Positions 2,199 through 62,340 of a DNA stretch of 64,000 nt are shown piece by piece. Position 1 is the first letter of the stretch. Each line of letters begins with the position of its first letter. The notes under the pieces are model-generated. The model did not search any database. It saw nothing but the letters and a program-made list of their open reading frames with translations, and was not told the DNA's origin. Position numbers and translations under genes: made by a program. This DNA is from a virus (taxonomy: Duplodnaviria > Heunggongvirae > Uroviricota > Caudoviricetes). Where the stretch lies: the IMG/VR virus record IMGVR_UViG_2913112809_000002; one strand, written 5' to 3'.

Positions 2199-2203
2199 AT
2201 ATT

Positions 2204-22744: not shown

Positions 22745-22820
<76 letters not shown>

Positions 22821-22823
22821 TAT

Positions 22824-22898
<75 letters not shown>

Positions 22899-24037: not shown

Positions 24038-24583
24038 ATGGTGTGCTGGTGGCGATGGTGCTGGTCGTGCTCCGGCCTTTACTGCGCAAATCTGAATAAC
24101 ACCACACAAAAGGCATCTGCGGGTGCCTTTGACGGGGTGTTGTTTTTTACGGGCCGCTGGTGGCCCTTTTTTATTTGCAGGAGAAGTTATGGCAGCAGAA
24201 CCTTGTCTGGTGGCGGGGCGGTGGGGCTGACGATAGGTGGAGCCAGTGTATTCGGGATTCTGACCAACACCGATTTCGGCGTGGTTATTGGCGCGTTTGC
24301 AGGGGCGCTTTTTGTTGTCACACAGCAAAAGGAAGTGCCTGTCTGGCGGATGTGTATCCACCTGCTGGTTGCTTTCGTGGTTGGCGTACTTGGTGCGGGT
24401 GTGGCTGCGTCTTTCATGCAGTGGTTAACGCACTACGACGACAAGCCACTGGACGCTCTGTGTGCGGTTGGTGTTTCAGCCCTGTCAATTAAGGCGCTGA
24501 CGTTCCTGTATCAGCAGGAGATTACATCGCTGTTCGGTTTTCTGACGAAGCTGCGCGGCGGAGGAGGAGGAAATGGTAAGTGA
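24038..24583 (+). CDS. Membrane protein (2-3 TM), possible holin/antiholin; start uncertain
   Basis: Hydrophobic segments; good RBS+ATG at 24189 is in a different frame. Confidence 0.3.
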   Translation: MVCWWRWCWSCSGLYCANLNNTTQKASAGAFDGVLFFTGRWWPFFICRRSYGSRTLSGGGAVGLTIGGASVFGILTNTDFGVVIGAFAGALFVVTQQKEVPVWRMCIHLLVAFVVGVLGAGVAASFMQWLTHYDDKPLDALCAVGVSALSIKALTFLYQQEITSLFGFLTKLRGGGGGNGK

Positions 24584-41209: not shown

Positions 41210-41535
41210 AAACCTTCCGCTGGAAAGTGAAACCCGGTATGGATGTGGCTTCGGCCCCTTCCGTCAGGAAGGTGCGCTTTGGTGATGGTTACTCCCAGCG
41301 CGCGCCTGCCGGGCTGAATGCCAACCTGAAAACGTACAGCGTGACGATTTCTGTCCCCCGTTGGGAGGCCACGGCGCTGGAATCGTTTCTGGCAGAGCAC
41401 GGAGGCTGGAAAGCCTTTCTGTGGACGCCGCCTTATGACTGGCGGCAGATAAAGGTGATCTGCGCAAAATGGTCGTCGCGGGTCAGTATGCTGCGTGTTG
41501 AGTTCAGCGCAGAGTTTGAACAGGTGGTGAACTGA
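41206..41535 (+). CDS. M: Tail tip assembly protein M
   Basis: 109 aa MKTFRWKVKPGMDVASAPSVRKVRFGDGYSQRAP... Confidence 0.9.
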   Translation: MKTFRWKVKPGMDVASAPSVRKVRFGDGYSQRAPAGLNANLKTYSVTISVPRWEATALESFLAEHGGWKAFLWTPPYDWRQIKVICAKWSSRVSMLRVEFSAEFEQVVN

Positions 41536-42233
41536 TGCAGGATATCCGACAGGAAACACTGAATGAATGCACCCGTGCGGAGCAGTCTGCCAGCGTGGTG
41601 CTCTGGGAAATCGATCTGACAGAGGTTGGTGGAGAACGTTATTTTTTCTGTAATGAGCAGAACGAAAAAGGTGAGCCGGTCACCTGGCAGGGGCGACAGT
41701 ATCAGGCGTATCCCATTCAGGGGAGTGGTTTCGAACTGAATGGCAAAGGCACCAGTACGCGCCCCACGCTGACGGTTTCTAACCTGTACGGTATGGTCAC
41801 TGGGATGGCGGAAGACCTGCAGAGTCTGGTCGGCGGAACGGTGGTCAGGCGTAAGGTTTATGCCCGTTTTCTGGATGCGGTGAACTTCGTCAACGGAAAC
41901 AGCGACGCCGATCCGGAGCAGGAGGTGATTAGCCGCTGGCGCATCGAGCAGTGCAGCGAACTGAGCGCGGTCAGTGCCTCTTTTGTACTGTCCACGCCGA
42001 CGGAAACGGATGGTGCCGTTTTTCCGGGACGTATCATGCTGGCCAACACCTGCACCTGGACCTATCGCGGTGATGAGTGCGGTTATAACGGTCCGGCTGT
42101 CGCTGATGAATATGACCAGCCGACGTCCGATATCACGAAGGATAAATGCAGCAAATGCCTGAGTGGCTGTAAGTTTCGCAATAATGTCGGCAACTTTGGC
42201 GGCTTCCTTTCCATTAACAAACTTTCGCAGTAA
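41535..42233 (+). CDS. L: Tail tip protein L
   Basis: 232 aa MQDIRQETLNECTRAEQSASVVLWEIDLTEVGGERYFFCNE... Confidence 0.9.
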   Translation: MQDIRQETLNECTRAEQSASVVLWEIDLTEVGGERYFFCNEQNEKGEPVTWQGRQYQAYPIQGSGFELNGKGTSTRPTLTVSNLYGMVTGMAEDLQSLVGGTVVRRKVYARFLDAVNFVNGNSDADPEQEVISRWRIEQCSELSAVSASFVLSTPTETDGAVFPGRIMLANTCTWTYRGDECGYNGPAVADEYDQPTSDITKDKCSKCLSGCKFRNNVGNFGGFLSINKLSQ

Positions 42234-42238
42234 ATCCC

Positions 42239-42982
42239 ATGACAGAGACAGAATCAGCGATTCTGGCGCACGCCCGACGATGTGCGCCAGCGGAGTCGTG
42301 CGGCTTCGTAGTGAGAACGCCGGAGGGGGAAAGATATTTTCCCTGCGTGAATATCTCCGGTGAGCCGGAGGATTATTTCCGGATGTCGCCGGAGGACTGG
42401 CTGCGGGCAGAAATGCAGGGTGAGATTGTGGCGCTGGTCCACAGCCACCCCGGTGGTCTGCCCTGGCTGAGTGAGGCCGACCGGCGGCTGCAGGTGCAGA
42501 GTGATTTGCCGTGGTGGCTGGTCTGCCGGGGGGCGATTCACAAGTTCCGCTGTGTGCCACATCTTACCGGGCGGCGCTTTGAGCACGGGGTGACGGACTG
42601 TTACACGCTGTTCCGGGACGCTTACCATCTGGCGGGGATTGAGATGCCGGATTTTCATCGCGGGGATGACTGGTGGCGTAACGGTCAGAATCTCTATCTG
42701 GATAATCTGGAGGCCACAGGGCTGTATCAGGTGCCGTTGTCATCAGCACAACCGGGCGATGTGCTGCTGTGCTGTTTTGGTTCATCGGTGCCGAATCATG
42801 CCGCCATTTACTGTGGTGATGGCGAGCTGCTGCACCATATTCCTGAACAACTGAGCAAACGAGAGAGGTATACCGACAAATGGCAGCGACGCACACACTC
42901 CCTCTGGCGTCACCGGGCATGGCACGCATCTGCCTTTACGGGGATTTACAACGATTTGGCCGCCGCATCGACCTTCGTGTGA
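42239..42982 (+). CDS. K: Tail tip assembly protein K (JAB/MPN + NlpC/P60); lambda annotation starts at internal Met 42383
   Basis: ...ESCGFV...HSHPGG...SEAD JAMM-like motif and Cys/His peptidase region. Confidence 0.85.
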   Translation: MTETESAILAHARRCAPAESCGFVVRTPEGERYFPCVNISGEPEDYFRMSPEDWLRAEMQGEIVALVHSHPGGLPWLSEADRRLQVQSDLPWWLVCRGAIHKFRCVPHLTGRRFEHGVTDCYTLFRDAYHLAGIEMPDFHRGDDWWRNGQNLYLDNLEATGLYQVPLSSAQPGDVLLCCFGSSVPNHAAIYCGDGELLHHIPEQLSKRERYTDKWQRRTHSLWRHRAWHASAFTGIYNDLAAASTFV

Positions 42983-43551
42983 AAACGGGGGCTGAAGCCA
43001 TCCGCGCACTGGCCACACAGCTCCCGGCGTTTCGTCAGAAACTGAGCGACGGCTGGTATCAGGTACGGATTGCCGGGCGGGACGTCAGCACGTCCGGGTT
43101 AACGGCGCAGTTACATGAGACTCTGCCTGATGGCGCTGTGATTCATATTGTTCCCAGAGTCGCCGGGGCCAAGTCAGGTGGCGTATTCCAGATTGTCCTG
43201 GGAGCAGCCGCCATTGCCGGATCATTCTTTACTGCCGGAGCCACCCTTGCAGCGTGGGGGGCAGCCATTGGGGCCGGTGGTATGACCGGCATCCTGTTTT
43301 CTCTCGGTGCCAGTATGGTGCTCGGTGGTGTGGCCCAGATGCTGGCACCGAAAGCCAGAACTCCCCGTACACAGACAACGGATAACGGTAAGCAGAACAC
43401 CTATTTCTCCTCACTGGATAACATGGTTGCCCAGGGCAATGTTATGCCTGTTCTGTATGGTGAAATGCGCGTGGGGTCACGTGTGGCATCTCAGGAGATC
43501 AGCACGGCAGACGAAGGGGACGGTGGTCAGGTTGTGGTGATTGGTCGCTGA
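42880..43551 (+). CDS. I: Tail tip assembly protein I
   Basis: 223 aa MAATHTLPLASPGMARICLYGDLQRFGRRIDLRVKTG... Confidence 0.9.
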   Translation: MAATHTLPLASPGMARICLYGDLQRFGRRIDLRVKTGAEAIRALATQLPAFRQKLSDGWYQVRIAGRDVSTSGLTAQLHETLPDGAVIHIVPRVAGAKSGGVFQIVLGAAAIAGSFFTAGATLAAWGAAIGAGGMTGILFSLGASMVLGGVAQMLAPKARTPRTQTTDNGKQNTYFSSLDNMVAQGNVMPVLYGEMRVGSRVASQEISTADEGDGGQVVVIGR

Positions 43552-43611
43552 TGCAAAATGTTTTATGTGAAACCGCCTCCGGGCGGTTTTGTCGTTTATG
43601 GAGCATGACGA

Positions 43612-46600
43612 ATGGGTAAAGGCAGCAGTAAGGGGCATACCCCGCGCGAAGCAAAGGACAACCTGAAGTCCACGCAGTTGCTGAGTGTGATCGATGCCAT
43701 CAGCGAAGGGCCGATAGAAGGTCCGGTGGATGGATTAAAAAGCGTGCTGCTGAACAGTACACCGGTGCTGGACAGTGAGGGAAATACCAACATCTCCGGC
43801 GTCACGGTGGTGTTCCGGGCAGGTGAGCAGGAACAGACACCGCCGGAGGGTTTTGAATCCTCCGGATCCGAGACGGTGCTGGGTACGGAAGTGAAATACG
43901 ACACGCCGATCACCCGGACCATCACGTCGGCAAACATCGACCGTCTGCGCTTTACCTTCGGTGTGCAGGCACTGGTGGAAACCACCTCAAAGGGGGACCG
44001 GAATCCGTCGGAAGTCCGCCTGCTGATTCAGATACAACGTAACGGTGGCTGGGTGACGGAAAAAGACATCACCATTAAGGGCAAAACCACCTCGCAGTAT
44101 CTGGCCTCGGTGGTGGTGGGTAACCTGCCGCCGCGCCCGTTCAACATCCGGATGCGCAGGATGACACCGGACAGCACCACAGACCAGCTGCAGAACAAAA
44201 CGCTCTGGTCGTCATACACCGAAATCATCGATGTGAAACAGTGCTACCCGAACACGGCACTGGTCGGCGTGCAGGTGGATTCGGAGCAGTTCGGCAGCCA
44301 GCAGGTGAGCCGTAATTATCATCTTCGCGGGCGCATTCTGCAGGTGCCGTCGAACTATAACCCGCAGACGCGGCAATACAGCGGTATCTGGGACGGAACG
44401 TTTAAGCCAGCATACAGCGACAATATGGCCTGGTGTCTGTGGGATATGCTGACCCACCCGCGCTACGGCATGGGGAAACGTCTTGGTGCGGCGGATGTGG
44501 ATAAATGGGCGCTGTATGTCATCGGCCAGTACTGCGACCAGTCTGTACCGAATGGTTTTGGTGGCACGGAGCCGCGTATCACCTGTAATGCCTACCTGAC
44601 CACACAGCGTAAGGCGTGGGATGTGCTCAGTGATTTCTGCTCGGCGATGCGCTGTATGCCGGTATGGAACGGGCAGACGCTGACGTTCGTGCAGGACCGA
44701 CCGTCGGATAAGGTGTGGACCTATAACCGCAGTAATGTGGTGACGCCGGATGATGGCGCGCCGTTCCGCTACAGCTTCAGCGCCCTGAAGGACCGCCATA
44801 ATGCCGTTGAGGTGAACTGGATTGACCCGAATAACGGCTGGGAGACAGCGACAGAGCTTGTGGAGGACACGCAGGCCATTGCCCGTTACGGTCGTAACGT
44901 CACGAAGATGGATGCCTTTGGCTGTACCAGTCGGGGGCAGGCGCACCGCGCCGGGCTGTGGCTGATTAAAACGGAGCTGCTGGAAACGCAGACCGTGGAC
45001 TTCAGCGTGGGCGCAGAAGGGCTTCGCCATGTACCGGGCGATGTCATTGAAATCTGTGATGATGACTATGCGGGGATCAGCATCGGCGGGCGTGTGCTGG
45101 CGGTGAACAGCCAGACCCGGACGCTGACGCTCGACCGTGAAATCACGCTGCCATCCTCCGGCACCACGCTGATAAGCCTGGTTGACGGGCAGGGGAATCC
45201 GGTCAGCGTGGAGGTCCAGTCCGTCACCGACGGCGTGAAGGTGAAAGTGAGCCGGGTTCCTGACGGCGTTGCCGAGTACAGCGTGTGGGGGCTGAAGCTG
45301 CCGACGCTGCGCCAGCGCCTGTTCCGCTGCGTGAGTATCCGTGAGAATGACGACGGCACGTATGCCATCACCGCTGTGCAGCATGTGCCGGAGAAAGAGG
45401 CCATCGTGGATAACGGGGCGCACTTTGACGGCGACCAGAGCGGCACGGTGAATGGTGTCACGCCGCCAGCGGTGCAGCACCTGACCGCAGAAGTCACCGC
45501 AGACAGCGGGGAATACCAGGTGCTGGCGCGCTGGGATACGCCGAAGGTGGTGAGGGGGGTGAGCTTTATGCTTCGCCTGACCGTGGCAGCGGATGACGGC
45601 AGTGAGCGGCTGGTCAGCACGGCCAGGACGACGGAAACCACATACCGCTTCACGCAACTGGCGCTGGGAAATTACAGGCTGACAGTCCGGGCGGTAAATG
45701 CGTGGGGACAGCAGGGCGATCCGGCATCGGTATCGTTCCGGATTGCCGCACCGGCAGCACCGTCGCGGATTGAGCTGACGCCGGGCTATTTTCAGATAAC
45801 CGCCACGCCGCATCTTGCGGTTTATGACCCGACGGTACAGTTTGAGTTCTGGTTCTCGGAAAAGCGGATTGCGGATATCAGGCAGGTTGAAACCACAGCA
45901 CGCTATCTTGGTACGGCGCTGTACTGGATAGCCGCCAGTATCAATATTAAGCCGGGCCATGATTATTATTTTTATATCCGCAGTGTGAATACTGTTGGTA
46001 AATCGGCATTCGTGGAGGCTGTCGGTCGGGCGAGCGATGATGCGGAAGGTTACCTGGATTTTTTCAAAGGCCAGATAACCGAATCCCATCTCGGCAAGGA
46101 GCTGCTGGAAAAAGTCGAGCTGACGGAGGATAACGCCAGCAAACTGGAGGAGTTTTCGAAAGAGTGGAAGGACGCCAACGATAAATGGAATGCCATGTGG
46201 GGCGTCAAAATTGAGCAGACCGAAGACGGCAAACATTATGTCGCGGGGCTTGGCCTCAGCATGGAGGATACAGAGGAAGGCAAACTGAGCCAGTTCCTGG
46301 TTGCCGCTAACCGTATCGCGTTTATTGATCCGTCCAGTGGCAACACGAAACCGATGTTTGTGGCGCAGGGCAACCAGATATTCATGAACGAAGTGTTTCT
46401 GAAATATCTGACGGCTCCCACCATTACCAGCGGCGGTAATCCTCCGTCATTTTCCCTTACACCGGACGGGCGGCTGACGGCGAGAAATGCCGATATCAGC
46501 GGTAACGTGAATGCGAACTCCGGGACGCTCAATAATGTCACGGTAAATGAAAACTGTACGATTAAGGGCATGCTGGAGGCGAACCAGGTCAGAGGTGACT

Positions 46601-47025
46601 TCGTTAAAACTGTATCCAAATCATTCCCGAAACAGGCTGGTACGTGGGGTAACACGGAAACACCAGGCGGGACGGTTACAGTCACCATTTACGATGATCA
46701 TAACTTTGACCGCCAGATTATTATTCCGCCCATTATTTTTAACGGTGTGGCGTATGACGATCCGGGGAGCGGTAATAAACCGGGAGGTACGCGATACACG
46801 GGTTATGGTTTTGAAGTTCGCAAAAACGGCGTATTAATCGCATCCAGAGAAACTAAAGGAGCCATTCCCGGTAGTTACAGTGCGGTTATTGATATGCCGA
46901 GTGGTGGTGGTAGCGTCACTCTGGAGTTTAAGATTTTCCAGAAAGGCAATCGGGGCGCAGGTAACATCACAGACTGTACGGTGATTGTGACCAAAAAAGC
47001 TGCTTCCGGTATCAGTATCCGTTGA
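43612..47025 (+). CDS. J: Central tail fibre / host specificity protein J
   Basis: 1137 aa lambda gpJ-like. Confidence 0.95.
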
Positions 47026-47045
47026 AATATTTATAACCCAAATAC

Positions 47046-47071
47046 GGGCGCCAGAAATGGCGCCTTTTTTA
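47046..47071 (+). terminator. Intrinsic terminator after J
   Basis: ggcgcc-agaaat-ggcgcc hairpin followed by T6. Confidence 0.5.
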
Positions 47072-47094
47072 TTGCAGAAAAGCGAGAGGTAATT

Positions 47095-47694
47095 ATGCGT
47101 AAATTATGTGCTGTTATTCTGTCTGCAGTAGTCTGGCTGGTCGCCGCTGGTACGCCAGCGAGTGCAGCAGAGCATCAGTCCACACTAAGCGGAGGGTATC
47201 TTCAGTCCCATACTGATATGCCCGGCAACGATGACCTGAAGGGCATTAACGTGAAATACCGTTATGAATTTACGGACACGCTGGGGCTGGTGACGTCATT
47301 CAGCTATGCAGGAGACAAGAATCGCCAGATTACCCGTTACAGCGATACCCGCTGGCATGAAGATTCAGTGCGTAACCGCTGGTTCAGCGTGATGGCGGGG
47401 CCGTCTGTACGCGTGAATGAATGGTTCAGTGCTTATGCGATGGCGGGTGTGGCTTACAGCCGTGTTTCGACCTTCTCCGGAGATTATCTCCGCGTAACTG
47501 ATAACAAGGGGAAAACGCACGATGTGCTGACCGGAAGTGATGACGGTCGCCACAGCAACACGTCTCTGGCGTGGGGGGCTGGCGTGCAGTTTAACCCGAC
47601 CGAATCCGTGGCCATTGATATTGCTTATGAAGGTTCCGGCAGTGGCGACTGGCGTACTGACGGTTTCATCGTGGGTGTCGGTTATAAATTCTGA
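47095..47694 (+). CDS. lom: Outer membrane protein Lom (Ail/Lom family, lysogenic conversion)
   Basis: 199 aa with signal peptide and beta-barrel-like alternating pattern, C-terminal ...GVGYKF. Confidence 0.85.
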
Positions 47695-47720
47695 TTAGCC
47701 AGGTAACACAGTGTTATGAC

Positions 47721-47748
47721 AGCCCGCCGGTTCAGGCGGGCTTTTTTG
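47721..47748 (+). terminator. Intrinsic terminator after lom
   Basis: agcccgcc-ggttcag-gcgggct followed by T6. Confidence 0.55.
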
Positions 47749-47752
47749 TGGA

Positions 47753-50158
47753 GTGGATATGGCAGCGGTAAAAATCTCAGGTGTACTGAAAGATGGTGCG
47801 GGAAAACCAATACAGAACTGCACTATTCAACTGAAGGCAAAGCGTAACAGCACCACGGTACTGGTGAACACGGTGGCCTCTGAAAATCCGGATGAAGCCG
47901 GGCGTTACAGCATGGATGTTGAGCATGGCCAGTACAGCGTCACCCTGCTGGTTGAAGGTTTTCCGCCTTCACATGCCGGGACCATTACCGTCTATGAAGG
48001 TTCCAGACCAGGTACGCTGAATGATTTTCTCGGTGCCATGACGGAAGATGATGTCATGCCGGAGGCATTGCGTCGTTTTGAGGAAATGGTGGAAGAAGCG
48101 GCACGCAACGCTGAAGCCGCCTCTCAGAGCGCAGCGGCGGCAAAGAAATCCGAAACTGCAGCGGCATCATCGAAGAACGCGGCGAAAACCTCAGAAACGA
48201 ATGCAGCTAACAGCGCACAGGCGGCAGCGTCCTCGCAGACTGCATCGGCAAACTCCGCGACAGCAGCCAAAAAATCAGAAACCAACGCGAAAAACAGCGA
48301 GACAGCCGCAAAAACGAGTGAAACCAACGCAAAGTCCAGCCAGACGGCAGCGAAAACCAGCGAAACGAATGCCAAAGCCAGTGAAACTGCGGCGAAAAGC
48401 AGTCAGGATGCAGCAGCTGAAAGCGAGAGTGCGGCGGCCGGTTCTGCGACTTCAGCAGCCGGATCAGCAACTGCTGCGGCTAACAGTCAGAAAGCAGCGA
48501 AGACGAGTGAAACTAACGCAAAGTCCAGCCAGACGGCAGCGAAGACCAGCGAAACGAATGCCAAAGCCAGCGAAACTGCGGCGAAAAATAGCCAGAACGC
48601 AGCAGCCGAAAGCGAAAGTGCCGCAGCCGGTTCTGCAAGTGCGGCGGCTACTTCTGCCACTGCATCAGCCAACAGCCAAAAAGCAGCAAAAACCTGTGAA
48701 ACCAACGCAAAGGCGAGCGAAACAGCGGCTGCGAACTCGGCGAAAGCATCGGCAGCAAGCCAGACGGCAGCTAAAGCAAGTGAAGACGCCGCCAGAGAGT
48801 ATGCAAGCCAGGCAGCAGAGCCGTATAAATATGTCTTACAGCCGCTGCCTGATGTGTGGATACCGTTTAACGATTCGCTGGATATGATTACGGGTTTTTC
48901 GCCATCATATAAAAAGATTGTTATTGGTGATGATGAAATAACGATGCCTGGCGATAAGGTTGTAAAGTTTAAACGCGCATCGAAAGCAACCTATATTAAT
49001 AAATCTGGTGTGCTGACAGAGGCTGCCATTGACGAGCCACGATTTGAACGTGATGGCCTGCTTATTGAGGGGCAAAGAACAAACTACATGCTCAATTCGG
49101 AAAACCCTGCCAGTTGGGGGCGATCGTCAAATATGGATGTTCCCGAAACCGGGAAGGACAGTTTTGGTTTTACCTATGGAAAGTTCGTCTGTAACGATTC
49201 TCTGATTGGGCAAACCTCAGCCATTAATATGGCATCAATTGCTGCAACAAAGTCAGTTGATGTATCAGGCGATAATAAATACGTGACAACCTCATGTCGT
49301 TTTAAAACAGAACTGCAGGTAAGGTTGCGTATCCGGTTTGATAAATATGACGGTAGCGCAACAACTTTTCTTGGTGATGCGTATATTGATACACAAACGC
49401 TTGAAATTAATATGACAGGCGGTGCTGCCTCAAGGATTACAGCGAGAGTCAGAAAGGACGAAGCTACCGGATGGATTTTTGCAGAGGCAACAATTCAGGC
49501 AATTGATGGGGAGTTAAAAATAGGTTCTCAGATACAGTATTCTCCTAAGCAGGGCGGGGCAACCGTATCTGGTGACTATATTTATCTGGCCACCCCACAA
49601 GTAGAAAATGGGCCTTGTGTATCATCTTTTATTATATCAGGAACGACGGCGGCGACTCGTGCGAGTGATATGGTTACGATCCCGACCGAAAACAACATTT
49701 ATAACAGACCGCTTACTTGTTTGGTCGAGGTTAACAGGAATTGGGGCGATATTCCCCCTAATGTAGCACCGCGTATTTTTGATTTTTCTGGTGTGCCGCC
49801 TATTGAGTCAATCACATACGCTTTTAACACAACCGAGAAATATTACGGTCAGCTTTATATGCAAACTTATAAAGCGTCGACAAGTAGTTACGTTTCTAGT
49901 TTGTTTACTGGTCGAACTGATGTTCGAAAATTCGTTGGTGGTTTTAATATTTATTCTGATGGTACTAAACGAGTAGTTTCTAACGGTGAGGCTACTAAAA
50001 CTATGAAAACGGAGTGGACGGGCGTAAAAACACGGACCTTTATTCGAATTGGATGTCAAGCCACATCTGGAACTCGTCATCTATTCGGCCATTTGAGAAA
50101 TCTTCGTCTCTGGCATAAAGAATTAACTGATGCGCAAATGGGGGAGAGTATTAAATGA
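47753..50158 (+). CDS. stf: Side tail fibre protein Stf with internal Ala/Ser-rich tandem repeats
   Basis: 801 aa; repeated AAKTSETNAKSSQTAAKTSETNAKASETAAK units. Confidence 0.85.
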   Translation: MDMAAVKISGVLKDGAGKPIQNCTIQLKAKRNSTTVLVNTVASENPDEAGRYSMDVEHGQYSVTLLVEGFPPSHAGTITVYEGSRPGTLNDFLGAMTEDDVMPEALRRFEEMVEEAARNAEAASQSAAAAKKSETAAASSKNAAKTSETNAANSAQAAASSQTASANSATAAKKSETNAKNSETAAKTSETNAKSSQTAAKTSETNAKASETAAKSSQDAAAESESAAAGSATSAAGSATAAANSQKAAKTSETNAKSSQTAAKTSETNAKASETAAKNSQNAAAESESAAAGSASAAATSATASANSQKAAKTCETNAKASETAAANSAKASAASQTAAKASEDAAREYASQAAEPYKYVLQPLPDVWIPFNDSLDMITGFSPSYKKIVIGDDEITMPGDKVVKFKRASKATYINKSGVLTEAAIDEPRFERDGLLIEGQRTNYMLNSENPASWGRSSNMDVPETGKDSFGFTYGKFVCNDSLIGQTSAINMASIAATKSVDVSGDNKYVTTSCRFKTELQVRLRIRFDKYDGSATTFLGDAYIDTQTLEINMTGGAASRITARVRKDEATGWIFAEATIQAIDGELKIGSQIQYSPKQGGATVSGDYIYLATPQVENGPCVSSFIISGTTAATRASDMVTIPTENNIYNRPLTCLVEVNRNWGDIPPNVAPRIFDFSGVPPIESITYAFNTTEKYYGQLYMQTYKASTSSYVSSLFTGRTDVRKFVGGFNIYSDGTKRVVSNGEATKTMKTEWTGVKTRTFIRIGCQATSGTRHLFGHLRNLRLWHKELTDAQMGESIK

Positions 50159-50436
50159 AAGATTTAACACTTAAATTTTCTGACAGGGCCGACTTTTCGG
50201 CCTTTATGGATAGCACTGGCTATTATGATGACGAGTCGATGCAGGATGATATTCTTATTGACGTGGTAGGTAACGTGTACAAAGAAACCGGAGAACTGAC
50301 TGAAGATGGCGAACCGGTATGTGTTAAGGAAGACGGATATTTTGTAAACGTGCGCATCATTAATGATGTGAAAACACCGTCAATATTCGATGAATACGTG
50401 GTTGCTGTTGAGCATCAACTTCGTGGCTGGATGTGA
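50155..50436 (+). CDS. Hypothetical acidic protein between tail fibre genes
   Basis: 93-aa ORF overlapping stf stop. Confidence 0.4.
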   Translation: MKDLTLKFSDRADFSAFMDSTGYYDDESMQDDILIDVVGNVYKETGELTEDGEPVCVKEDGYFVNVRIINDVKTPSIFDEYVVAVEHQLRGWM

Positions 50437-50445
50437 GGAAGAATA

Positions 50446-51486
50446 ATGGCTACATCGACAGTAATTCCTGATGACATCAAAACGCTAAAATCCGATGTTA
50501 GCAAATTAAAAAACGAACAAGGAAGCTACGCAACAAAATCATATGTAGACAGCAAAAATGAAACCGTTGGTGACTGGTCTGCTGCATGGTATCAGCAGGT
50601 ATTGCCAACTAGCGGGGCTATATTTGGGCGAAAACTTCGCTCAACTCACAGGACGGCAGGTGTTGAGGATGCGTATTGCGAACTATACCTTAAAAAATGG
50701 ATAGACAGCCCAGGGAACGCAATGGCGCGCCTTAACCTGAACGATAACGGGACAAACATTTGCTGGGACTTTACCAACCTTTATGGCGGTACGATGATTT
50801 TTCCCGGTGATAGCGGATACCTCAAAATGGGTAACTGCCTTATGTCATACGGCAGGCGTGGAAGTAACGCGCTTATTAAATTTGATTACACCGACACATT
50901 ACAGATCAAATATGCCAATCATGGGTCAACCATGACATTAAACACACAGGGGACCGCTCATTCTGGCGCTACTACTAGTTTGTGGGGTAACTCTACCCGT
51001 CCGGTTGTATATGAAGTTGGTGCTGATGGTGGCGCGTATATGTTCTATGCGCAGAAAAATACCGATAACACCTATATGTTAAGCGTTAATGGTGCATGTC
51101 ATGCCACCGCATTTAACCAGCATTCCGACCGGGATCTGAAAGACAACATTCAGGTGATCGATAATGCAACCGACCGCATCCGTAAAATGAACGGCTATAC
51201 ATACACGCTTAAAGAAAACGGCATACCCTATGCTGGTGTCATTGCACAGGAAGCACTGGAAGCAATCCCAGAAGTTGTAGGTTCCGCAATGAAATATCAG
51301 GACGGTGCAAGCGGATCGGAAGGTGAAGAAGGTGAACGTTATTACACAGTAGATTATTCTGGTGTTACTGGCTTGCTTGTTCAGGTAGCCAGAGAGTCAG
51401 ACGACAGAATAACAGCACTGGAAGAAGAAAACATAGAATTAAAACAAAGATTATCTGCAATTGAGGCGGCGCTTGCGTCTAAATAA
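50446..51486 (+). CDS. Tail fibre/tailspike-like protein with C-terminal S74-type intramolecular chaperone domain
   Basis: C-terminal ...[52 protein letters not shown]... Confidence 0.55.
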
Positions 51487-51500
51487 TATTAAGGGGCCGT

Positions 51501-52928
51501 GTGTCCCGCTATAGTATTCTGGAGTATAAAGTGTCAGTTTTAATATCTGGTGAATTATTGGATGGTTCCGGTAGTCCAATGTCTGATTTTCGGATAATTA
51601 TAAAGGCGAAAGTAAATACGTATGCGGTGCTACAGAAAACCACATTTGATATCTTAACTAATGAAGCTGGTGAATATTCGTTTAATATTCAAACCGGAAA
51701 GTACAGCGTTTATTTAAAGCAGGGCTGGCATGATCAGTATTACGTCGGTGACATTGTTGTATTTGATGATTCAAAGCCTGGCACGCTGAACGACTTCCTG
51801 ACCGCTCTCGATGAAGGCGACCTGAAACCGGATGTAGTGAAACGTTTTGAGGAAATTGCGGATACGGTCAACCGTCTCTCTGAACAGGTGAGCAGTGACA
51901 GGGAGAAAGCAGAAGCGGCCGCTGATGCTGCAAAAAACGCAGCAACCACAGCTCTGGACAATAAAAATAAGGCGGAGGAATTTAAAGAACAATCACGGAA
52001 GAATGCCGAAATCGCTGCGGGATGCGCGCAAAGTGCCGGACAGCACGCTTCGGATGCTGCACAAACTGAAAAGCAGGTGGGAATCCTGGCGACAGATATT
52101 CGACAGAATGCAGGCGATGTTTATCAGAACGTACAGCATGTTGAGCGTCTGGCATCAGAAGTTGCGCAGAATGCCAGCCAGGTGCATCAGAATACCCTGA
52201 CAGTAACGGATGCAGCGCAGTCTGTGGAGCGGAATGCACAGCTGACAACGCAGTTAAGAAACGAAGCCGGTCGCTTTGCCGACGATTCCAGGAAAAGTTC
52301 AGAGGATGCAAAAGAGTACAGTGACAGTGCCAGAAAATTGGTCGATGAAATGAAATCTGTCAGTACTCATCCGGCAGGGATAGTTTTTGCATGGCCAGCG
52401 GATATTCCCCCGGAAGGATTTGCATTAATGCGGGGTCAGCCATTCGATAAATCTGCGTATCCACAACTGGCAACTGCATTTCCGTCAGGTGTAATACCTG
52501 ATATGCGAGGGTGGATAATAAAAGGCAAACCCGACGGGCGAGCTGTTCTGTCCCTTGAAGAGGACGGTGTTAAGCGGCACGAGCATACAGCAAAGGTGAT
52601 ACCGACGGATTTGGGTTCAAGGGAGACAAGTTCCTTTGATTATGGCTCTAAAAGCACAGAGTCAGGTGGAGAGCATAATCATATTGTTAATGGTGTGTGG
52701 GCTGGAACAACAACAAGGAACGGTGGAACAAAATGGGATACGCCAGGATATATAGCGGATATAACAACCAGCAGTGGCGGTACACATGCACATCGTACCA
52801 ATATAGGCCCACACGCCCATACCGTGGTGCTGGGTGAACATGGTCATGATGTTATGGTTGATGAGACGGGTAATGCAGAAAATACAGTTAAAAATATCGC
52901 GTTTAACTTCATTGTGAGGCTGGCATGA
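51501..52928 (+). CDS. Second Stf-like side tail fibre protein (divergent C-terminal domain)
   Basis: N-terminus resembles stf N-terminus (ISG.L.DG.G.P......I..KAK.N...VL, GTLNDFL). Confidence 0.55.
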
Positions 52929-53530
52929 CAAATTTCAAAATGAGTCCGGAATCCCGGACACTGAAAATTTATAACTTACGGGCTGATACAAAAGAGTATA
53001 TAGGCGCGGGAGATGTTTATATTCCACCGTATACAGGATTACCGGCGAACTGCACGCTTATCGAACCGCCAGAGGCTGGCCCCGGCCAGGTTGCCGTTTT
53101 CAACGATGCACAGCAACAGTGGGAAGTTGTTGAAGATCACCGTGGGAAAACGGTATATGACACAGCCACCGGGAAGACATTGTGCATTTCCCGTCCGGGG
53201 GCTTTGCCGGATGATATCACCACTTTACCGCCAGAGGGGGAATTCCATCGATGGGATGGTGCGAAATGGATAAAAGACGACGAGGCCGAAAGGGCGGCGA
53301 AAATTCGTGACGCTGAACGGGAGAAGCAAAAATTACTTCAGGAGATAATGGAAAAAACACAGCTGTGGCAAACGTGGCTGTCACTTGGGATTATCAGCGA
53401 AGCTGATAAAAAATCACTCAGGGAGTGGATGTTGTATGCCCAAAAAGTTGAAGCGACGGACACATCTGAATTACCTGTGAGATTTCCCGACAAACCGCTT
53501 ATTGCGGGTGAGCTATCCGGCACGGCGTAA
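52925..53530 (+). CDS. tfa: Tail fibre assembly protein Tfa
   Basis: 201 aa, N-terminal ...[29 protein letters not shown]...VAVFN...[15 protein letters not shown]. Confidence 0.8.
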
Positions 53531-53568
53531 AAAACCAAAAGATAATCGCAGGTTTTAAAGGCTGAAAA

Positions 53569-53817
53569 TATACCAATTGGTATACCAAGTTTATACCAAG
53601 AGCCCAAAAGGCAAAGGGGCTACCATTTGGTAACCCCTTGATTATTTGGCGGAAGCGCAGAGATTCGAACTCTGGAACCCTTTCGGGTCGCCGGTTTTCA
53701 AGACCGAAGAAAAACAAAGGAAAATCAATATAATACGGAAAAGTGATTAAAAGATAATCAACTTTAACCTCTAGAAAAATCAGGCTATTAGGTGGTTTTC
53801 TGAGTTTTTATACCAAG
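53569..53817. other. att-like region: repeated TATACCAAG arm-type motifs flanking a tRNA-Ser 3' fragment
   Basis: tataccaa at 53569, tataccaag at 53581 and 53809, ataccaag at 53593; tRNA fragment 53647..53705 between them; integrase immediately adjacent. Confidence 0.5.
53647..53705 (-). other. 3' fragment of a tRNA-Ser-like gene (anticodon loop to CCA end), putative att core
   Basis: Minus strand reads GGTCTTGAAAACCGGCGACCCGAAAGGGTTCCAGAGTTCGAATCTCTGCGCTTCCGCCA; no matching 5' half. Confidence 0.6.
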
Positions 53818-53846: not shown

Positions 53847-54866
53847 CTATTTACTAACCACAAGTGGCAAGTCCAGTGTTGGTGTGACTTTTGTTTTTCG
53901 ATCATAAATCAACACCTGATTTTCTGTTTTATGCCCACTGAAAATTTGTTTGTCGCGACTGCTGCCTTCGTAATCTGAAATCCCTTTGGCTTTTATGTCA
54001 TGGAAGTTGCACCCAAACGGAACACCGGCTTTTTGCTCCGCTGCGCGTTTAGCCTGATTCCACCAGTTGTTCAGCGTTTTGGCTATAACTTTCCCACCTT
54101 TGGTTGTATTGATCACATACTCGCATGTGCCGGAAGTTACATTTCGGGCTAACTGGATCGCGGTACGTAATCGCGGAGACCATTCCTTAATTTGTTTAGC
54201 ACCAGTCTTGTTTTGCTCAATGTAAATTCCTTTATCCATAATATCCTGCCATTTTAGCTCGAGCACATCACCGAGCCTTGCCGCACAAAGATAGGATATC
54301 TCCATTGCAATACGTAACTGCGGAATTGCTTCCGCATATATCGCAGCATATTGTTCATCAGTGATGTAAACAGTACGAGCTTTAAGCGTGAATTTTCTGA
54401 CTCCTTTGCATGGATTATTTTTCACATACCCACGCTCATACCCCCATCCGTATACGCGACTCAGACTTGCCAGTTCATGGTTTGCCTGGGTTTTGCTCTC
54501 TAGTCCTCGTTTATCCATGAAAATTCTTACCTGTTCAATTTTTACATTATCAGCAAGCACTTTACCGAATACCGCCAGCAACGCTCTTTGATGTTGCCGA
54601 TAATCTTTTTGGGTTCGGGGGGCCAGTTCTGTAAATGCAGGGGAGTCCATAAACATGTGCCATAATTTAGCGACGGTCATTATGTTGTGGAGTTTTGCTT
54701 TTTCCAGTTCATAATTTTGCCAGACTTTAGCTACGCTGGTTTCCCGCACTCTTCCGAGCCCTATAGTTCTTGTGCTTCCTTCGGGTTTCCATACATAACT
54801 GTAACCATTCGACCTGACACGTGGTGGCAGTGCATTATCTTTTTTGTTTTTTCTTGGTCTTCCCAT
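53847..54866 (-). CDS. int: Tyrosine integrase (lambda Int family)
   Basis: 339 aa; C-terminal catalytic region ...FHDIKAKG...GHKTENQVLIYDRK; adjacent to att-like region. Confidence 0.85.
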   Translation of the reverse strand: MGRPRKNKKDNALPPRVRSNGYSYVWKPEGSTRTIGLGRVRETSVAKVWQNYELEKAKLHNIMTVAKLWHMFMDSPAFTELAPRTQKDYRQHQRALLAVFGKVLADNVKIEQVRIFMDKRGLESKTQANHELASLSRVYGWGYERGYVKNNPCKGVRKFTLKARTVYITDEQYAAIYAEAIPQLRIAMEISYLCAARLGDVLELKWQDIMDKGIYIEQNKTGAKQIKEWSPRLRTAIQLARNVTSGTCEYVINTTKGGKVIAKTLNNWWNQAKRAAEQKAGVPFGCNFHDIKAKGISDYEGSSRDKQIFSGHKTENQVLIYDRKTKVTPTLDLPLVVSK

Positions 54867-55152: not shown

Positions 55153-57630
55153 TTAAAAATCAGTCTGATTAGGGATCAGTTTTTGCCAGATTGCTGAAAC
55201 GTATTTCGCCTGGTGGCGGGCGTCATCCAGTGCATTGTGGGGTACACCCTCGAACGGAATAGCCGCTCTGGCATCAAATTCCAGGGCTTTTCCCAGCTCA
55301 ACGATTGTGCGCACATCGCGATCGTTGTAGTAACGCCACGGACAGGGGATCCCCTGTCGTTCATGTGAACGGCGTAAAATCACGTTGTCGAAGTTAGCCC
55401 CATTTCCCCAGACCCGAACAAAAAATTCACCGGAGTTTTCGTCTATAAATTCACGCAACTGCAGCAGTGCATCATCCAACGGGATTTCATCGACCAGAAT
55501 GGCGGATTGCGCTTCGCGTGATTGTTTCAGCCACCATTTTATGGCGTCCCGATCAATGATTCCGCCTGCAGTTTCCAGATCAATAGTCTTAATAAATTCC
55601 GGCCCCATATCTCCGGTCTGCGGATCGAAAAATATTGCACCTATTGAGATAATCGGGGCATCAGGATTTTTTCCCATCGTTTCAAGGTCGATCATCAGAT
55701 GGTGCCACACCCTGCTGGTGGATGTGGTTTCATGATGACCGTTCACCTTAACTAAGGGATCAGTCGCCTCGCCAGTTTCATTATCGCTGACGTGGTCCTG
55801 ATCGCCGCCAGTGTTCTCCTTGTGCGGATGTTCAGTGCCTTCCATTTCCTCTGGAGCTTCTTCCCGAGATTCATCCTGATTTTCTCCATCGAATGTTTCC
55901 TGGTATGTTGCGTCGCCCATCACTGCACCACAATCAGGGCAGTTGCCACTGCCTGTCTGCCCGCAGGCGGTGCAAACTTTTTCCACTTCTTGTTGCACTA
56001 CTGGTTCAGGCTGTTTCGTTTCTGGCTCGTTTTGTAACGCATTTTGGCTGTTTTGTTCCGCTTTCTGGTCGTTTTGTTCCGTTTCTGTTTCTTGCAGGTT
56101 CTGGTTCACAGAATCGCGAGTCTGGATCCCCTTAACCCATTTTGGATCATTCGGGTCGCTAATCCCGTCAACAAATTCACCACGTGATACAGCAAGCAAC
56201 TTATCGGCGTCAGTCTGCTTGATATTGGCTGCCTGCATAATTTGGTTTACTTCGTCAGCGGTAACTTTTACCAGTTCCGGTTGTGCGATCGTGTCAGATG
56301 CACCAGTATTTTGTTGTGAACCTGAGTATGTGCCGTTTTTGCGGGCAAAATATTCTTCTTTCGTGATTTCAGTAGCCCCGGCAGCCAGCGCCTTATCCAG
56401 ACCTGAAAGTTTGTTTGCACGACCGTATTTTTCGCCATCCTTATCGGTGAATAGGAAGTAGAACGGCCCCTCACGCTCTACAGATGGTTCTGCTTCCACT
56501 TCGCATTCGGTTTTTTCGTTGTCCGGCATTGCCGTTTCCACTGCATTAGTTTCTGGTACTGGCGACGGGAGAGTATTAGTTGTGCTCTGATTTGTACCTT
56601 CATCTTCAAACACGCCCTTTGTAGTCAGGTATTCAGTGATGTATTTGTTCAGTGCCACGGGATCCTTGTGAATGTCGATCGGACGCTCACGGACAAGGCC
56701 AAAAATAGTCTGACGGTCATAGCGAATGGCATCAGGCTGTTTGCGCATTGATGCGGAAATACGCTTCCAGTCTTCGCGATCGTTCTCGATAACTTCATTT
56801 TTTGCCCAGCGATGGATGCTGCCGTCAATGTTTCCGGCATCAATGTCACCAGGCCACAGAGCGTAGGCCAGCTCATCATCCAGTGTTTTCCATGTCTGCT
56901 TGTATTCGCGACGAATGACAGCAGTGACAGGGGGGATTTTTTCTGCTGAGTTTTCAGTGTGCTGTCGGTTGACTCTGGCGCGGGCGAGATCAACAACAGA
57001 AGTATATTTCCCGGTTTCTTTTCGTTCGGCTTCGCGACGTTTTTTCCAGGCGCGTAATTCAGTCTGGATCTCAGGCCATTTTGCCCCCGGCTTACATTTA
57101 TGTTTAACCCACCCGATGGCGAACAGCTTAAGCTCCGGATACATGATGTTAACTTCAGGCATTTTCATTAATGCTTCAACGATATGCCCGTCGAATGTTG
57201 CCATGTCTTCCTGCAGTAACTCCTGTGCGCTAATCACCATATCAACGGTGATGTTTTCACATGTACCGAACTTAACCAGGACCGCGTTCTGTACTTCAAG
57301 GGACAGTTTGTCAAAATTGACGTTCATCGGATCGGATTCTGGTTCGACCAGGACAAAAGAAGCTGAGTTTTCATCCCAGCGATTTTCCTGCATATATTCG
57401 GTATCCCAGGAATCGAGGGCAGGGCGTGGCATGCCGGGCTTATCCTCACAGACAATAATTTTATAAGCGCAGTCCTGAGCTGCCGGATATTGCTCCAGGA
57501 ATAACCAGCCAAATTTAGCTCTTGCGCGGCGTTCGTCGCCGGCTTCAATGGCAGTGGCTACAGCAACAGCACCTTCTTCCTTTATTGCCTGTTCGTCCGG
57601 CATGGCGGCGCAAATAAAGACTTTACTCAT
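55153..57630 (-). CDS. RecE-like exonuclease with C-terminal DnaQ-like 3'-5' exonuclease-type region
   Basis: 825 aa; acidic low-complexity linker; C-terminal MIDLETMG...H..DD motifs. Confidence 0.6.
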   Translation of the reverse strand: MSKVFICAAMPDEQAIKEEGAVAVATAIEAGDERRARAKFGWLFLEQYPAAQDCAYKIIVCEDKPGMPRPALDSWDTEYMQENRWDENSASFVLVEPESDPMNVNFDKLSLEVQNAVLVKFGTCENITVDMVISAQELLQEDMATFDGHIVEALMKMPEVNIMYPELKLFAIGWVKHKCKPGAKWPEIQTELRAWKKRREAERKETGKYTSVVDLARARVNRQHTENSAEKIPPVTAVIRREYKQTWKTLDDELAYALWPGDIDAGNIDGSIHRWAKNEVIENDREDWKRISASMRKQPDAIRYDRQTIFGLVRERPIDIHKDPVALNKYITEYLTTKGVFEDEGTNQSTTNTLPSPVPETNAVETAMPDNEKTECEVEAEPSVEREGPFYFLFTDKDGEKYGRANKLSGLDKALAAGATEITKEEYFARKNGTYSGSQQNTGASDTIAQPELVKVTADEVNQIMQAANIKQTDADKLLAVSRGEFVDGISDPNDPKWVKGIQTRDSVNQNLQETETEQNDQKAEQNSQNALQNEPETKQPEPVVQQEVEKVCTACGQTGSGNCPDCGAVMGDATYQETFDGENQDESREEAPEEMEGTEHPHKENTGGDQDHVSDNETGEATDPLVKVNGHHETTSTSRVWHHLMIDLETMGKNPDAPIISIGAIFFDPQTGDMGPEFIKTIDLETAGGIIDRDAIKWWLKQSREAQSAILVDEIPLDDALLQLREFIDENSGEFFVRVWGNGANFDNVILRRSHERQGIPCPWRYYNDRDVRTIVELGKALEFDARAAIPFEGVPHNALDDARHQAKYVSAIWQKLIPNQTDF

Positions 57631-59974: not shown

Positions 59975-60622
59975 TTATAGGTTGAACTGTACACCTTTTG
60001 CTACGGCAACAATTTTACACTCTGGCGTAAGCAAGGATGATTGATAGCGCGGATTGAGAGGGCTTAAATACACAAGTTTTCCATCAATAACTAATTTTTT
60101 TATAGTCATAGACGGTTCATTTGTAAGTGGATCTGGAACTATTACAGCGACAATACTGCCATTTTTATAACTTTCTCCTGGTCTTAGGATCACAGTGGCA
60201 CCAACCGGGATACTCGGCGACCCTGAGGGGTTATGCATAGTGTCATCAGGCATTGAAACGGCAAAATCACCTTCCACTACATCAAAGAATGTGGTGATCC
60301 TATCGACATTTCCCATTGTTTTCTCTCCTTCTAAGATTAGGAAAGAAATCGCGTCACCCCACGAAAAGTAGGGGATCTTGGTGCCTGGATTGCTCTGCAC
60401 AAAAGATAGTTCAGGAGACGATACTCCATACAGGAGATAGGACTCAGTAGTTCCTAATGCTTGGGCTAACTTACTTAGAGCTTTGCTGCCGGGTTCGTTT
60501 AGATCTTTCTCCCAGTACCCTATAGTAACCCCAGTCACGCCTGAAAGCTTACCCAGTTCTACCTGGGTGAGTCCCTTATCTTTTCTGAGTTTCTTAAGCC
60601 TGATGCCAAGGCTTTCCATCAT
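59975..60622 (-). CDS. CI-like repressor (HTH + S24 peptidase)
   Basis: 215 aa; N-terminal HTH LTQVELGKLSGVTGVTIGYWE; C-terminal peptidase-like domain. Confidence 0.85.
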   Translation of the reverse strand: MMESLGIRLKKLRKDKGLTQVELGKLSGVTGVTIGYWEKDLNEPGSKALSKLAQALGTTESYLLYGVSSPELSFVQSNPGTKIPYFSWGDAISFLILEGEKTMGNVDRITTFFDVVEGDFAVSMPDDTMHNPSGSPSIPVGATVILRPGESYKNGSIVAVIVPDPLTNEPSMTIKKLVIDGKLVYLSPLNPRYQSSLLTPECKIVAVAKGVQFNL

Positions 60623-61392: not shown

Positions 61393-62340
61393 ATGAGCAG
61401 CAAGCTTCATGGTCTTGTCTGGGAAGGGTGTGCCTTCACCGGCATGATCTTATCCCGGGTAGCAGTAATGGCTCGCCTTGCAGACTACAGCAATGACGAA
61501 GGTGTGTCATGGCCTGCAGTGGAGACTATTCGTCGTCAGATTGGGGCAAAGAGTGAATCAACGGTTAAAGCTGCGATAGCGGAACTGGAAAAGAACGGCT
61601 GGCTGACGAAGGAGGAACGTAAGGTCGGTGGGCGTAATGTAAGCAATATTTACCGCCTTAATGTGGAAAAACTTGAAGCAGCAGCGGCGGCGGCGCGTGA
61701 GGCATATAAACCGAAAAGAAAAATTAACCCGGTAAAAAATGACCCGTCAAATATTGACCCCTCAACGGTTGACCCGTCAAATTTTGATGGATCAACAGTT
61801 GATAAAAAACAGCCGGTTAGGGGGGCGATGGTTGGCCCCGATCCGTCAGTATTAAAACCTGATCCGTCAGATAAAAGATCTTCTTGTCCGGACGCTTCGC
61901 AACCGGACCCGCAGACGGCTGAACAGGATTTTTTAACCCGACACCCTGACGCTGTTGTGTTCAGTGCGAAAAAACGCCAGTGGGGCAGCCAGGAAGATTT
62001 GGCGTGTGCGCAGTGGATCTGGGGGCGAATCGTGAGTCTTTACGAGCAGGCCGCCAGCGATGATGGCGAGCTCATGCGACCGAAAGAACCCAACTGGGCT
62101 GCATGGGCCAATGATGTGCGCACAATGCGGATGCTGGATGGCAGAACTCACAGACAAATTTGTGAAATGTTTGGTCGGGTACAGCGGGATCCATTCTGGG
62201 TAAAAAACATCATGAGCCCGTCAAAGCTCCGCGAAAAATGGGACGAACTGGTCATTCGCCTGGGGCGTTCGCCTGTACAGCGTTGTGTGAATCACATTTC
62301 TGAACCGGATACCGAAATTCCGCAGGGCTTCAGGGGGTGA
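61393..62340 (+). CDS. Replication initiator O-like protein with internal iterons
   Basis: 315 aa; N-terminal HTH-like region; NDPSNIDPSTVDPSNFDGSTVD peptide repeats encoded by DNA iterons. Confidence 0.55.
   Translation: MSSKLHGLVWEGCAFTGMILSRVAVMARLADYSNDEGVSWPAVETIRRQIGAKSESTVKAAIAELEKNGWLTKEERKVGGRNVSNIYRLNVEKLEAAAAAAREAYKPKRKINPVKNDPSNIDPSTVDPSNFDGSTVDKKQPVRGAMVGPDPSVLKPDPSDKRSSCPDASQPDPQTAEQDFLTRHPDAVVFSAKKRQWGSQEDLACAQWIWGRIVSLYEQAASDDGELMRPKEPNWAAWANDVRTMRMLDGRTHRQICEMFGRVQRDPFWVKNIMSPSKLREKWDELVIRLGRSPVQRCVNHISEPDTEIPQGFRG
61735..61810. repeat. Iteron array (putative origin)
   Basis: Direct repeats tgacccgtcaaat / ttgacccctcaacgg / ttgacccgtcaaatt / ttgatggatcaacag. Confidence 0.5.

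Follow-up and report, generated by a model that had tools for sequence, protein, structure and literature searches.

The 64,000-nucleotide (nt) stretch of DNA analysed here, called the window below, comes from a virus of the class Caudoviricetes (IMG/VR record IMGVR_UViG_2913112809_000002) and probably carries two complete side-tail-fibre cassettes, one behind the other, as the final part of a lambda-like prophage's late operon. Cassette A consists of stfA, encoding a proximal side tail fibre, orf93, encoding a small acidic protein, and orf346, encoding a short distal fibre. Cassette B consists of stfB, encoding a second and shorter side tail fibre, and tfa, encoding a fibre assembly chaperone. 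A preliminary description of the region had proposed an expanded host-range module in which three extra genes lie between stf and tfa, where phage lambda has nothing. That lambda is empty at this point, and that the window holds a host-range region encoding more than one fibre from intact genes, both stand, but the boundaries of the expansion do not: this type of stf is regularly accompanied by orf93 and orf346, and the added element is the pair stfB-tfa, with tfa belonging to stfB as judged from the ATGA overlap of the two genes and their travelling together. Side fibres set the adsorption speed and host reach of temperate phages. A lambda-like tail with two collar-type fibres would lend itself to testing whether different Stf proteins can share the 12-subunit collar, a question that bears on lambda-based vectors engineered for several specificities.

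Two side-tail-fibre cassettes at the end of a lambda-like late operon

StfA is built from a lambda-type collar domain (amino acids (aa) ~1-95), an alanine-rich shaft, and a LamG/ConA-like lectin region (aa ~441-801, nt 49073-50158). The protein carries Pfam family PF08400 (expect value E = 1.5e-66), its first ~95 residues match the structure of the Ur-lambda Stf collar domain (PDB 9E7M, E = 4e-48), and the collar domain is 77% identical to that of lambda Stf. The shaft is encoded in part by a 189-bp tandem repeat present in 2.2 copies at 48293-48712, with 42-bp sub-repeats, and homologues of StfA have lengths of 736, 785, and 798 aa, which suggests that the shaft varies in length through gain and loss of repeats. 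Among 71 distinct homologues, residues 1-440 are conserved, with a mean pairwise identity of about 0.8, and residues 441-760 are variable, at 0.46-0.63. Variability in the lectin region is the pattern that would be expected for a receptor-binding domain. The C terminus of StfA, with its LamG/ConA-like fold, gave no match to T4 gp37.

Downstream of stfA, the products of orf93 and orf346 have the features attributed to them in the preliminary description. The orf93 protein is acidic (isoelectric point 4.09), with 21 aspartate and glutamate residues and 8 lysine and arginine residues, and it matches phrog_1361 (E = 3e-45), while searches of Pfam, NCBIfam, and the PDB gave no match. The orf346 protein ends in an S74-type intramolecular chaperone domain that spans aa ~228-346 (nt 51127-51483) and was recognized from PF13884 (Peptidase_S74) at aa 227-278 (E = 8.6e-14, 52 bits against a cut-off of 22). 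The sequence HS227|D228RDLK, a putative Ser-Asp cleavage motif of the kind known from endosialidases and T5 pb1, sits at the boundary of this domain. The protein matches phrog_4563 over its full length (E = 8e-215), has a beta-rich tip ahead of the chaperone domain, and showed weak similarity to a fibre end that bears a chaperone (PDB 6F45) and to the repeats of T4 gp34. No PF08400 anchor was found in it with Pfam, nor any other recognizable virion anchor domain.

StfB begins with a divergent collar domain (nt 51531-51810), followed by a shaft, a collar/neck domain, and a needle tip like that of T4 gp37. PF08400 (E = 5.1e-46) and PF07484 (collar; E = 3e-9) were both detected with Pfam, and the protein matches the Ur-lambda collar structure 9E7M (E = 1.9e-16). 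Its last 190 residues match the receptor-binding tip of T4 gp37 (PDB 2XGF, E = 4.8e-56), and this tip (nt ~52356-52925) contains five HxH motifs, at aa 350, 382, 419, 428, and 437. As had been proposed, the N terminus of this second Stf matches that of the first (38% identity over 178 residues, E = 1e-25) and its C-terminal domain differs: no similarity between StfA and StfB was found past the N-terminal ~178 residues. The product of tfa is a member of the tail fibre assembly family (PF02413, E = 3.5e-28, 98.8 bits against a cut-off of 22.1; phrog_105, E = 2e-75). The C-terminal part of StfB together with Tfa is 46-47% identical to the corresponding parts of lambda, and Tfa itself is 47% identical.

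We tabulated the + strand stretch of the 64-kb window between J and a minus-strand integrase gene (Table 1). For two of the genes the favoured start codon differs from that of the listed open reading frame (ORF): ATG 47759 for stfA agrees with the gene call on an identical NCBI contig and with homologue length, and GTG 51531 for stfB has GGAG 6 nt upstream and yields the 465 aa that are found both in homologues and in the NCBI gene call. ATGA overlaps join stfA to orf93 and stfB to tfa, and a ribosome-binding site, GAGGAAG, precedes orf346. On the + strand from stfA to tfa, no terminator-like site combining a G+C-rich stem with a T-run was found; three weak matches to the terminator consensus occur there, all within coding sequence. 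Upstream, the tail-tip proteins M, L, K, and I share 93-99% identity with their lambda counterparts. A Q-like antiterminator gene, a holin gene, and a terminase gene lie upstream on the same strand as the fibre genes, and the late operon therefore looks intact. The G+C content falls to 0.42-0.45 over 49073-51920, a segment that takes in the StfA lectin region, orf93, orf346, and the StfB collar domain, compared with 0.565 in J and 0.53 in the 5' part of stfA, which is consistent with horizontally exchanged modules.

The end of the prophage can be placed by comparison with a 5.12-Mb NCBI contig (GCA_005781185.1, VATS01000001.1) that is 100% identical to the window over 41531-53706. In this twin contig (locus L005), tfa is followed by an intact transfer RNA (tRNA) gene, tRNA-Ser(UGA), at 12117-12204 of the locus, and then by hyaABCDEF-appCB. 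In the window, no complete tRNA gene was called at 53647-53706, and a 3' remnant of the tRNA gene is followed by the integrase gene of a second prophage. Therefore, the fibre genes are the last genes of the lambda-like prophage. Because the otherwise identical contig has this tRNA gene in intact form with the hya operon behind it, we place the extra prophage of the window's genome in tRNA-Ser(UGA).

The preliminary description had raised the possibility that the extra fibre genes are truncated remnants. All five ORFs of the fibre region look intact, and the ratio of nonsynonymous to synonymous substitution rates (dN/dS) against relatives is 0.13-0.43, with values of 0.31 for the StfA lectin region, 0.34 for orf93, 0.13-0.17 for orf346, 0.22-0.24 for stfB, and 0.28-0.43 for tfa. 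By this measure, the fibre genes are under purifying selection.

Table 1 Positions of the fibre-region genes and of other features of the window.
Feature	Position	Strand	Remarks
J	43612-47025	+	88% identical to lambda J
lom	47095-47694	+	Between J and stfA
stfA, proximal side tail fibre	47759-50158	+	Listed ORF from GTG 47753, 801 aa; likely start ATG 47759, 799 aa
orf93, small acidic protein	50155-50436	+	phrog_1361
orf346, short distal fibre	50446-51486	+	PF13884; phrog_4563
stfB, second, shorter side tail fibre	51531-52928	+	465 aa; listed ORF from GTG 51501, 475 aa
tfa, fibre assembly chaperone	52925-53530	+	201 aa; PF02413; phrog_105
tRNA-Ser(UGA)	53647-53706	-	Only 3' 60 nt left; end of identity to related genome; second prophage starts
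Integrase gene of second prophage	53847-54866	-	
tRNA pair Thr + Asn	2123-2278	-	
Minus-strand early genes	Q 2553-3176; DnaB 6430-7806; O 7803-8750	-	Plus lysis-region ORFs
cI-like gene	9758-10465	+	
Q-like antiterminator	21725-22420	+	
tRNA pair Thr + Gly	22745-22898	+	
Holin	24038-24583	+	
Terminase	28301 onward	+	

Cassette A is a conserved three-gene lateral-fibre module

We fetched 80 IMG/VR loci by means of orf346 and, together with annotated loci, could analyse 79. The gene order stfA, small ORF (89-93 aa), orf346 is present in every one of them (79/79), and in about 97% of loci the three genes occur without a tfa. The segment 47700-51508 of the window, which holds all three, recurs as a single piece of about 95% identity in many Escherichia coli chromosomes, for example that of strain 144. 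Of 5426 complete E. coli genomes, 1130 have a match to the DNA of orf93-orf346, and in 517 of these, UTI89 among them, the match extends over 80% or more of the query; a scan of species-representative genomes for orf346 returned 2 loci.

The trio is also found outside lambdoid phages. It is present in the N15-like linear-plasmid phage PhiR46_1, in the virulent Nonagvirus phages ESCO3 and JenP2, and in the T5-like phage IrisVonRoten (Bas32), where the order is Gp22, Gp23, Gp24, and a reduced form occurs in the T1-like phage KarlJaspers (Bas06). JenP2 gp23, gp24, and gp25 are full-length homologues of StfA, orf93, and orf346 with identities of 37%, 42%, and 40%, from which it appears that the three genes have diverged together. 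The JenP2 genes have the order of cassette A, lie downstream of a J homologue, and begin with a fibre whose N terminus is of the collar type; unlike the window's prophage, JenP2 is virulent and has neither a second Stf-Tfa pair nor orf97, the gene that usually follows orf346 (see below). With N15-, T1-, 9g-, T5-, and rV5-like representatives, the module recurs in five phage groups besides the E. coli prophages in which it is very common (UTI89 and strain 144 among them), which makes it a lead of wider interest. These comparisons indicate that cassette A is a conserved three-gene lateral-fibre module rather than an insertion, and that it represents a known but poorly characterised kind of two-part lateral fibre.

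The middle gene belongs to a ~92-aa family that is invariably placed between the genes of a proximal and a distal lateral fibre. Homologues of orf93 occur in 79/79 related loci, where they fall into three subfamilies of 93, 92, and 89 aa, and in 181 phage records from lambdoid phages (including phage 21), T1-like phages, Dhillonvirus, Nonagvirus, T5-like phages, and rV5-like phages; in the phage records the gene adjoins a lateral-fibre gene every time. Its product is 37% identical to Bas32 Gp23, 49% to Bas06 gp36, and 42% to JenP2 gp24. A search of 1.84 billion proteins yielded 54 family representatives with no fusion of an orf93-like domain to a larger protein; all are small, save for one weak and probably spurious match. 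We propose that orf93 encodes an assembly factor or adaptor. The ~92-aa middle protein of the module is annotated as hypothetical only, and defining what it does would shed light on the construction of two-part lateral fibres. The reading frame that orf93 shares with orf346, with only a TGA and three codons between them, prompted us to consider a fusion of the two products by stop-codon read-through. This idea was rejected on finding that the frames of the two genes differ in the 92-aa subfamily, and the common frame in the window is probably a coincidence.

In orf346 homologues, residues 1-20 are conserved, residues 41-100 are variable, and residues 101-346 are conserved. The protein opens with a conserved motif, MxTxTVIPxDIxxLK, that is common to JenP2 gp25 and Bas32 Gp24, the latter beginning MVTKTVIPTDITKLK at the corresponding position. 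In KarlJaspers, gp35 (225 aa, with the annotation putative lateral tail fibre chaperone) begins with a less strict version of it. We regard this motif as a putative docking peptide. The first five residues of orf346 track the orf93 subfamily, a correlation that is inseparable from simple linkage. The Nonagvirus phage FritzHoffmann has instead one fibre of 1060 aa, the last ~260 residues of which correspond to orf346 residues 86-339; the N-terminal ~85 residues of orf346 are therefore peculiar to the split design.

The stfB-tfa pair replaces a membrane-protein gene

Downstream sequence was long enough in 62 loci, and in 57 of them the next gene after orf346 encodes a 97-aa predicted membrane protein (orf97; phrog_1443). 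The stfB-tfa pair occupies the orf97 position in the window, in its twin contig, and in one IMG/VR contig. Similarity between the two arrangements stops about 13 nt past the orf346 stop codon. In E. coli 144, a hairpin with a T-run follows orf346, and orf97 (9830-10123 of that locus, L001) lies behind this terminator-like structure; in the window the T-run is lost. The orf97 gene could be a moron expressed in the lysogen, for example one that serves exclusion or receptor masking. The comparison of related prophages that had been suggested for cassette swapping does reveal a replacement, of orf97 by stfB-tfa. On this evidence, stfB-tfa is the added element and takes the place of the 97-aa membrane-protein gene.

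The tandem layout is rare. Among fetched loci with at least 1.5 kb of sequence downstream of orf346, the window and its twin set aside, it occurs in 1 of 45, and none of the 5426 complete E. coli genomes covers 80% of the tandem region. The single further copy, on another contig, is diverged, with a StfB N-terminal domain that is 80% identical to that of the window. In 300 phage records with a match to the collar domain, only 302 places matched in total. The parts of the locus are of known kinds, and it is only their combination on a lambda-like tail that makes it unusual, as a rare variant.

Cassette B itself has the hallmarks of an ordinary Stf-Tfa pair of a mobile type. The tfa gene stays with stfB in seven loci (L002, L041, and L094-L098). 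The best DNA matches to stfB-tfa in complete E. coli genomes are in three mouse isolates, where the pair ends a P2-like prophage beside potB and the stfB counterpart has 93% DNA identity to that of the window. Close relatives of StfB were found in six IMG/VR loci, of which only one is lambda-like, and this one is from the contig of the second tandem example. The lambdoid copies of StfB are 65-69% identical to the other copies over the N-terminal 130 residues and 96% identical in the shaft, which points to a breakpoint directly behind the anchor domain.

The closest relatives of cassette B are add-on fibre pairs at the ends of phiP27-like and P2-like prophages. Fibre-chaperone pairs stand in tandem at the right end of the phiP27 (L54-L57) and Rac-SA53 (tail1-tail4) prophages. 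There too, a PF08400-type second fibre and its own Tfa are the last genes before the attachment site. Unlike the window's prophage, phiP27 and Rac-SA53 have baseplate genes and myovirus-type tails, and in place of the three-gene module their first fibre belongs to a common fibre-Tfa pair.

A model for fibre assembly and competing explanations

Structures and genetics of related phages suggest how the products of the two cassettes could be assembled. In Ur-lambda, 12 Stf N-terminal domains ring the gpV/gpM junction as a collar, corresponding to four trimeric fibres (PMC12617516). In the T5-like phage DT57C, genetics and cryo-electron microscopy place LtfB on the tail via LtfA, and both proteins bind receptors (PMC4728585, PMC10713586). 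In IrisVonRoten, an AlphaFold-Multimer model puts Gp24 on the proximal fibre Gp22, whose galectin-like end has been put forward as a further receptor-binding domain (PMC11990801). By homology, StfA trimers would form the 12-subunit collar at the gpV/gpM junction and the proximal fibre, as in Ur-lambda. Trimers of orf346 would fold with the help of the chaperone domain, release it by cleavage behind Ser227, and attach through their N terminus to distal StfA, giving a two-part or branched fibre like those of LtfA/LtfB in DT57C and, as modelled, Gp22/Gp24 in IrisVonRoten; orf93 would aid the assembly or linkage of orf346 and StfA. StfB, folded by Tfa, would either compete with StfA for collar positions or sit elsewhere.

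A virion assembled in this way could bear up to three receptor-binding domains: the lectin end of StfA, probably directed at O-antigen or another glycan, the orf346 tip, and the gp37-like tip of StfB, which might target OmpC or lipopolysaccharide. Multi-receptor specificity is therefore plausible from the domain content, and the 'dual' specificity of the preliminary description may be an undercount, with the lectin-like end of StfA as a third candidate receptor-binding domain. The scheme in full, with three receptor-binding domains on the side fibres, a mixed StfA/StfB 12-subunit collar or a second site for StfB, orf346 docked on StfA, and an orf93 family that is a shared adaptor or assembly factor in lambda-, N15-, T1-, 9g-, T5-, and rV5-like phages, is speculative, and we doubt that every part of it will hold.

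The likeness to the T5-like systems extends to the gene content: IrisVonRoten Gp22-24 and DT57C LtfA-LtfB likewise combine a proximal fibre, a ~92-aa protein, and a distal fibre with an intramolecular chaperone, and residues 133-800 of StfA are 46% identical to residues 61-796 of IrisVonRoten Gp22, an alignment that takes in the lectin-like end. T5-like phages, however, have a pb1-type N terminus in a separate LtfC ring, whereas here a lambda-type collar (PF08400) is fused to the fibre, and IrisVonRoten Gp24 has 574 aa compared with the 346 aa of orf346, with similarity detectable only in the N-terminal motif. Ur-lambda Stf-Tfa has the same position after J-lom and the same T4 gp37-like HxH tip as StfB. 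However, one Stf of about 774 aa joins collar and gp37-like tip in Ur-lambda, whereas here the lambda-like collar is on StfA, which bears a lectin end, and the tip is on the 465-aa StfB, which bears a divergent collar.

Several observations weigh against two functional cassettes and against the roles assigned to them. The collar domain of StfB is only 38-41% identical to those of lambda and StfA but reaches 68-70% identity with the second fibre in phiP27 (L56) and Rac-SA53 (tail3), and relatives of StfB serve baseplate-bearing tails; with a divergent collar and such relatives, the fit of StfB to a lambda gpV/gpM junction is uncertain. In the close homologues sampled, the orf346 tip just ahead of the chaperone domain shows strong conservation, which is unexpected for a host-range determinant. 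AlphaFold2 modelling of orf93 from a shallow alignment gave a mean predicted local distance difference test score (pLDDT) of 46, and because this model is unusable the role of orf93 is a guess. The early region is also disordered: the segment 9000-16278 corresponds to an inverted early-left region of Stx2a phages, genes for O, DnaB, and another Q lie on the minus strand at 2.5-8.8 kb, and no integrase of this prophage was seen in the window, including between the + strand early genes and the Q-like gene. On the + strand, early-left genes like those of Stx phages (Sak4, SSB, HNH) lead directly into the Q-like gene. This odd early layout suggests recombination or inversion between prophages, and the prophage may be defective or rearranged.

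Some of the same observations sustain the alternative that stfB-tfa, though intact and perhaps expressed, is a recombination passenger at the prophage end that is not built into the lambda-like tail, or that the prophage is defective, with no extra host range as the outcome. In addition to the divergent collar and the rearranged early region, the affinities of cassette B fit this explanation. Lambda I and J are missing from five of the six loci with close StfB relatives; L094, which was examined among these five, has baseplate genes as well as a fibre and Tfa upstream. Among phages, phiP27 and Rac-SA53 match best. The rarity of the layout, in none of the complete genomes and in one other of about 45 loci, points the same way. 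However, the dN/dS of stfB and tfa against relatives (0.22-0.43), the translational coupling of the genes, and the loss of the T-run from the hairpin after orf346 are at odds with an idle passenger, and the existence of a second, diverged tandem copy suggests that the layout persists. The contrast between an N terminus that is 65-69% identical to the copies in a myovirus context and a shaft that is 96% identical is consistent with a swap of the anchor domain. We therefore consider a passenger or a defective prophage to be unlikely, though a serious contender to two functional cassettes.

A second alternative concerns cassette A alone and holds that orf346, instead of sitting on StfA, forms a short fibre of its own that is anchored at another point of the tail tip, or lies outside the virion altogether. 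Weak LtfB density that also touches the tail tip in DT57C (PMC10713586) would allow an independent fibre. Against this, orf346 has no recognizable virion anchor domain, its gene strictly adjoins that of a StfA-type proximal fibre in every lineage, and its N-terminal motif is kept while the rest of the protein varies. The single-chain homologue in FritzHoffmann puts the tip at the end of a collar-anchored fibre, and the published multimer model seats the homologous distal fibre on the proximal one (PMC11990801). An unattached orf346 thus appears improbable.

The arrangement originally envisaged, in which orf93, orf346, and a second stf were inserted between an original stf and its tfa so that Tfa serves the first Stf and one specificity is added, agrees with the order stf ... 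tfa in the window and with a Tfa relic in E. coli 144 implying that some ancestor lost a lambda-type stf-tfa end, but it is largely refuted by the comparative data, and we give it very little credence: the lectin-fold C terminus of StfA offers no gp37-like tip for Tfa, nearly all copies of cassette A do without tfa, tfa overlaps stfB and accompanies it in unrelated prophages, and the relic is unlike the tfa of the window. This relic, a 28-aa ORF annotated as a tail fibre assembly protein (L001 10173-10259), lies downstream of the stfA-orf93-orf346-orf97 block and shares 70% identity with the final 27 residues of lambda Tfa, with no match to the window tfa. It indicates that the common cassette A arrangement has overwritten a lambda-type stf-tfa end. 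Two side-tail-fibre cassettes, the second of them added in place of orf97, remain the explanation that we favour.

Other features of the window

Phage-borne tRNA genes occur as two pairs, each just past a Q antiterminator gene, as in Stx-type phages (Table 1). An ORF at 23438-23950, between the Q-like gene and the holin gene, matches a PHROG annotated 'tellurite resistance' in the moron category (E = 1.8e-65). The second prophage, which begins at the tRNA-Ser remnant, is also lambdoid; its cI-like gene lies at 59975-60622 (minus strand) and its O-like gene at 61393-62340. Its early-left genes include one at 55153-57630 (minus strand) for an 825-aa protein with a C-terminal Rv2179c-like 3'-5' exoribonuclease domain (E = 1.6e-65), preceded by a long acidic N-terminal part without a family match.

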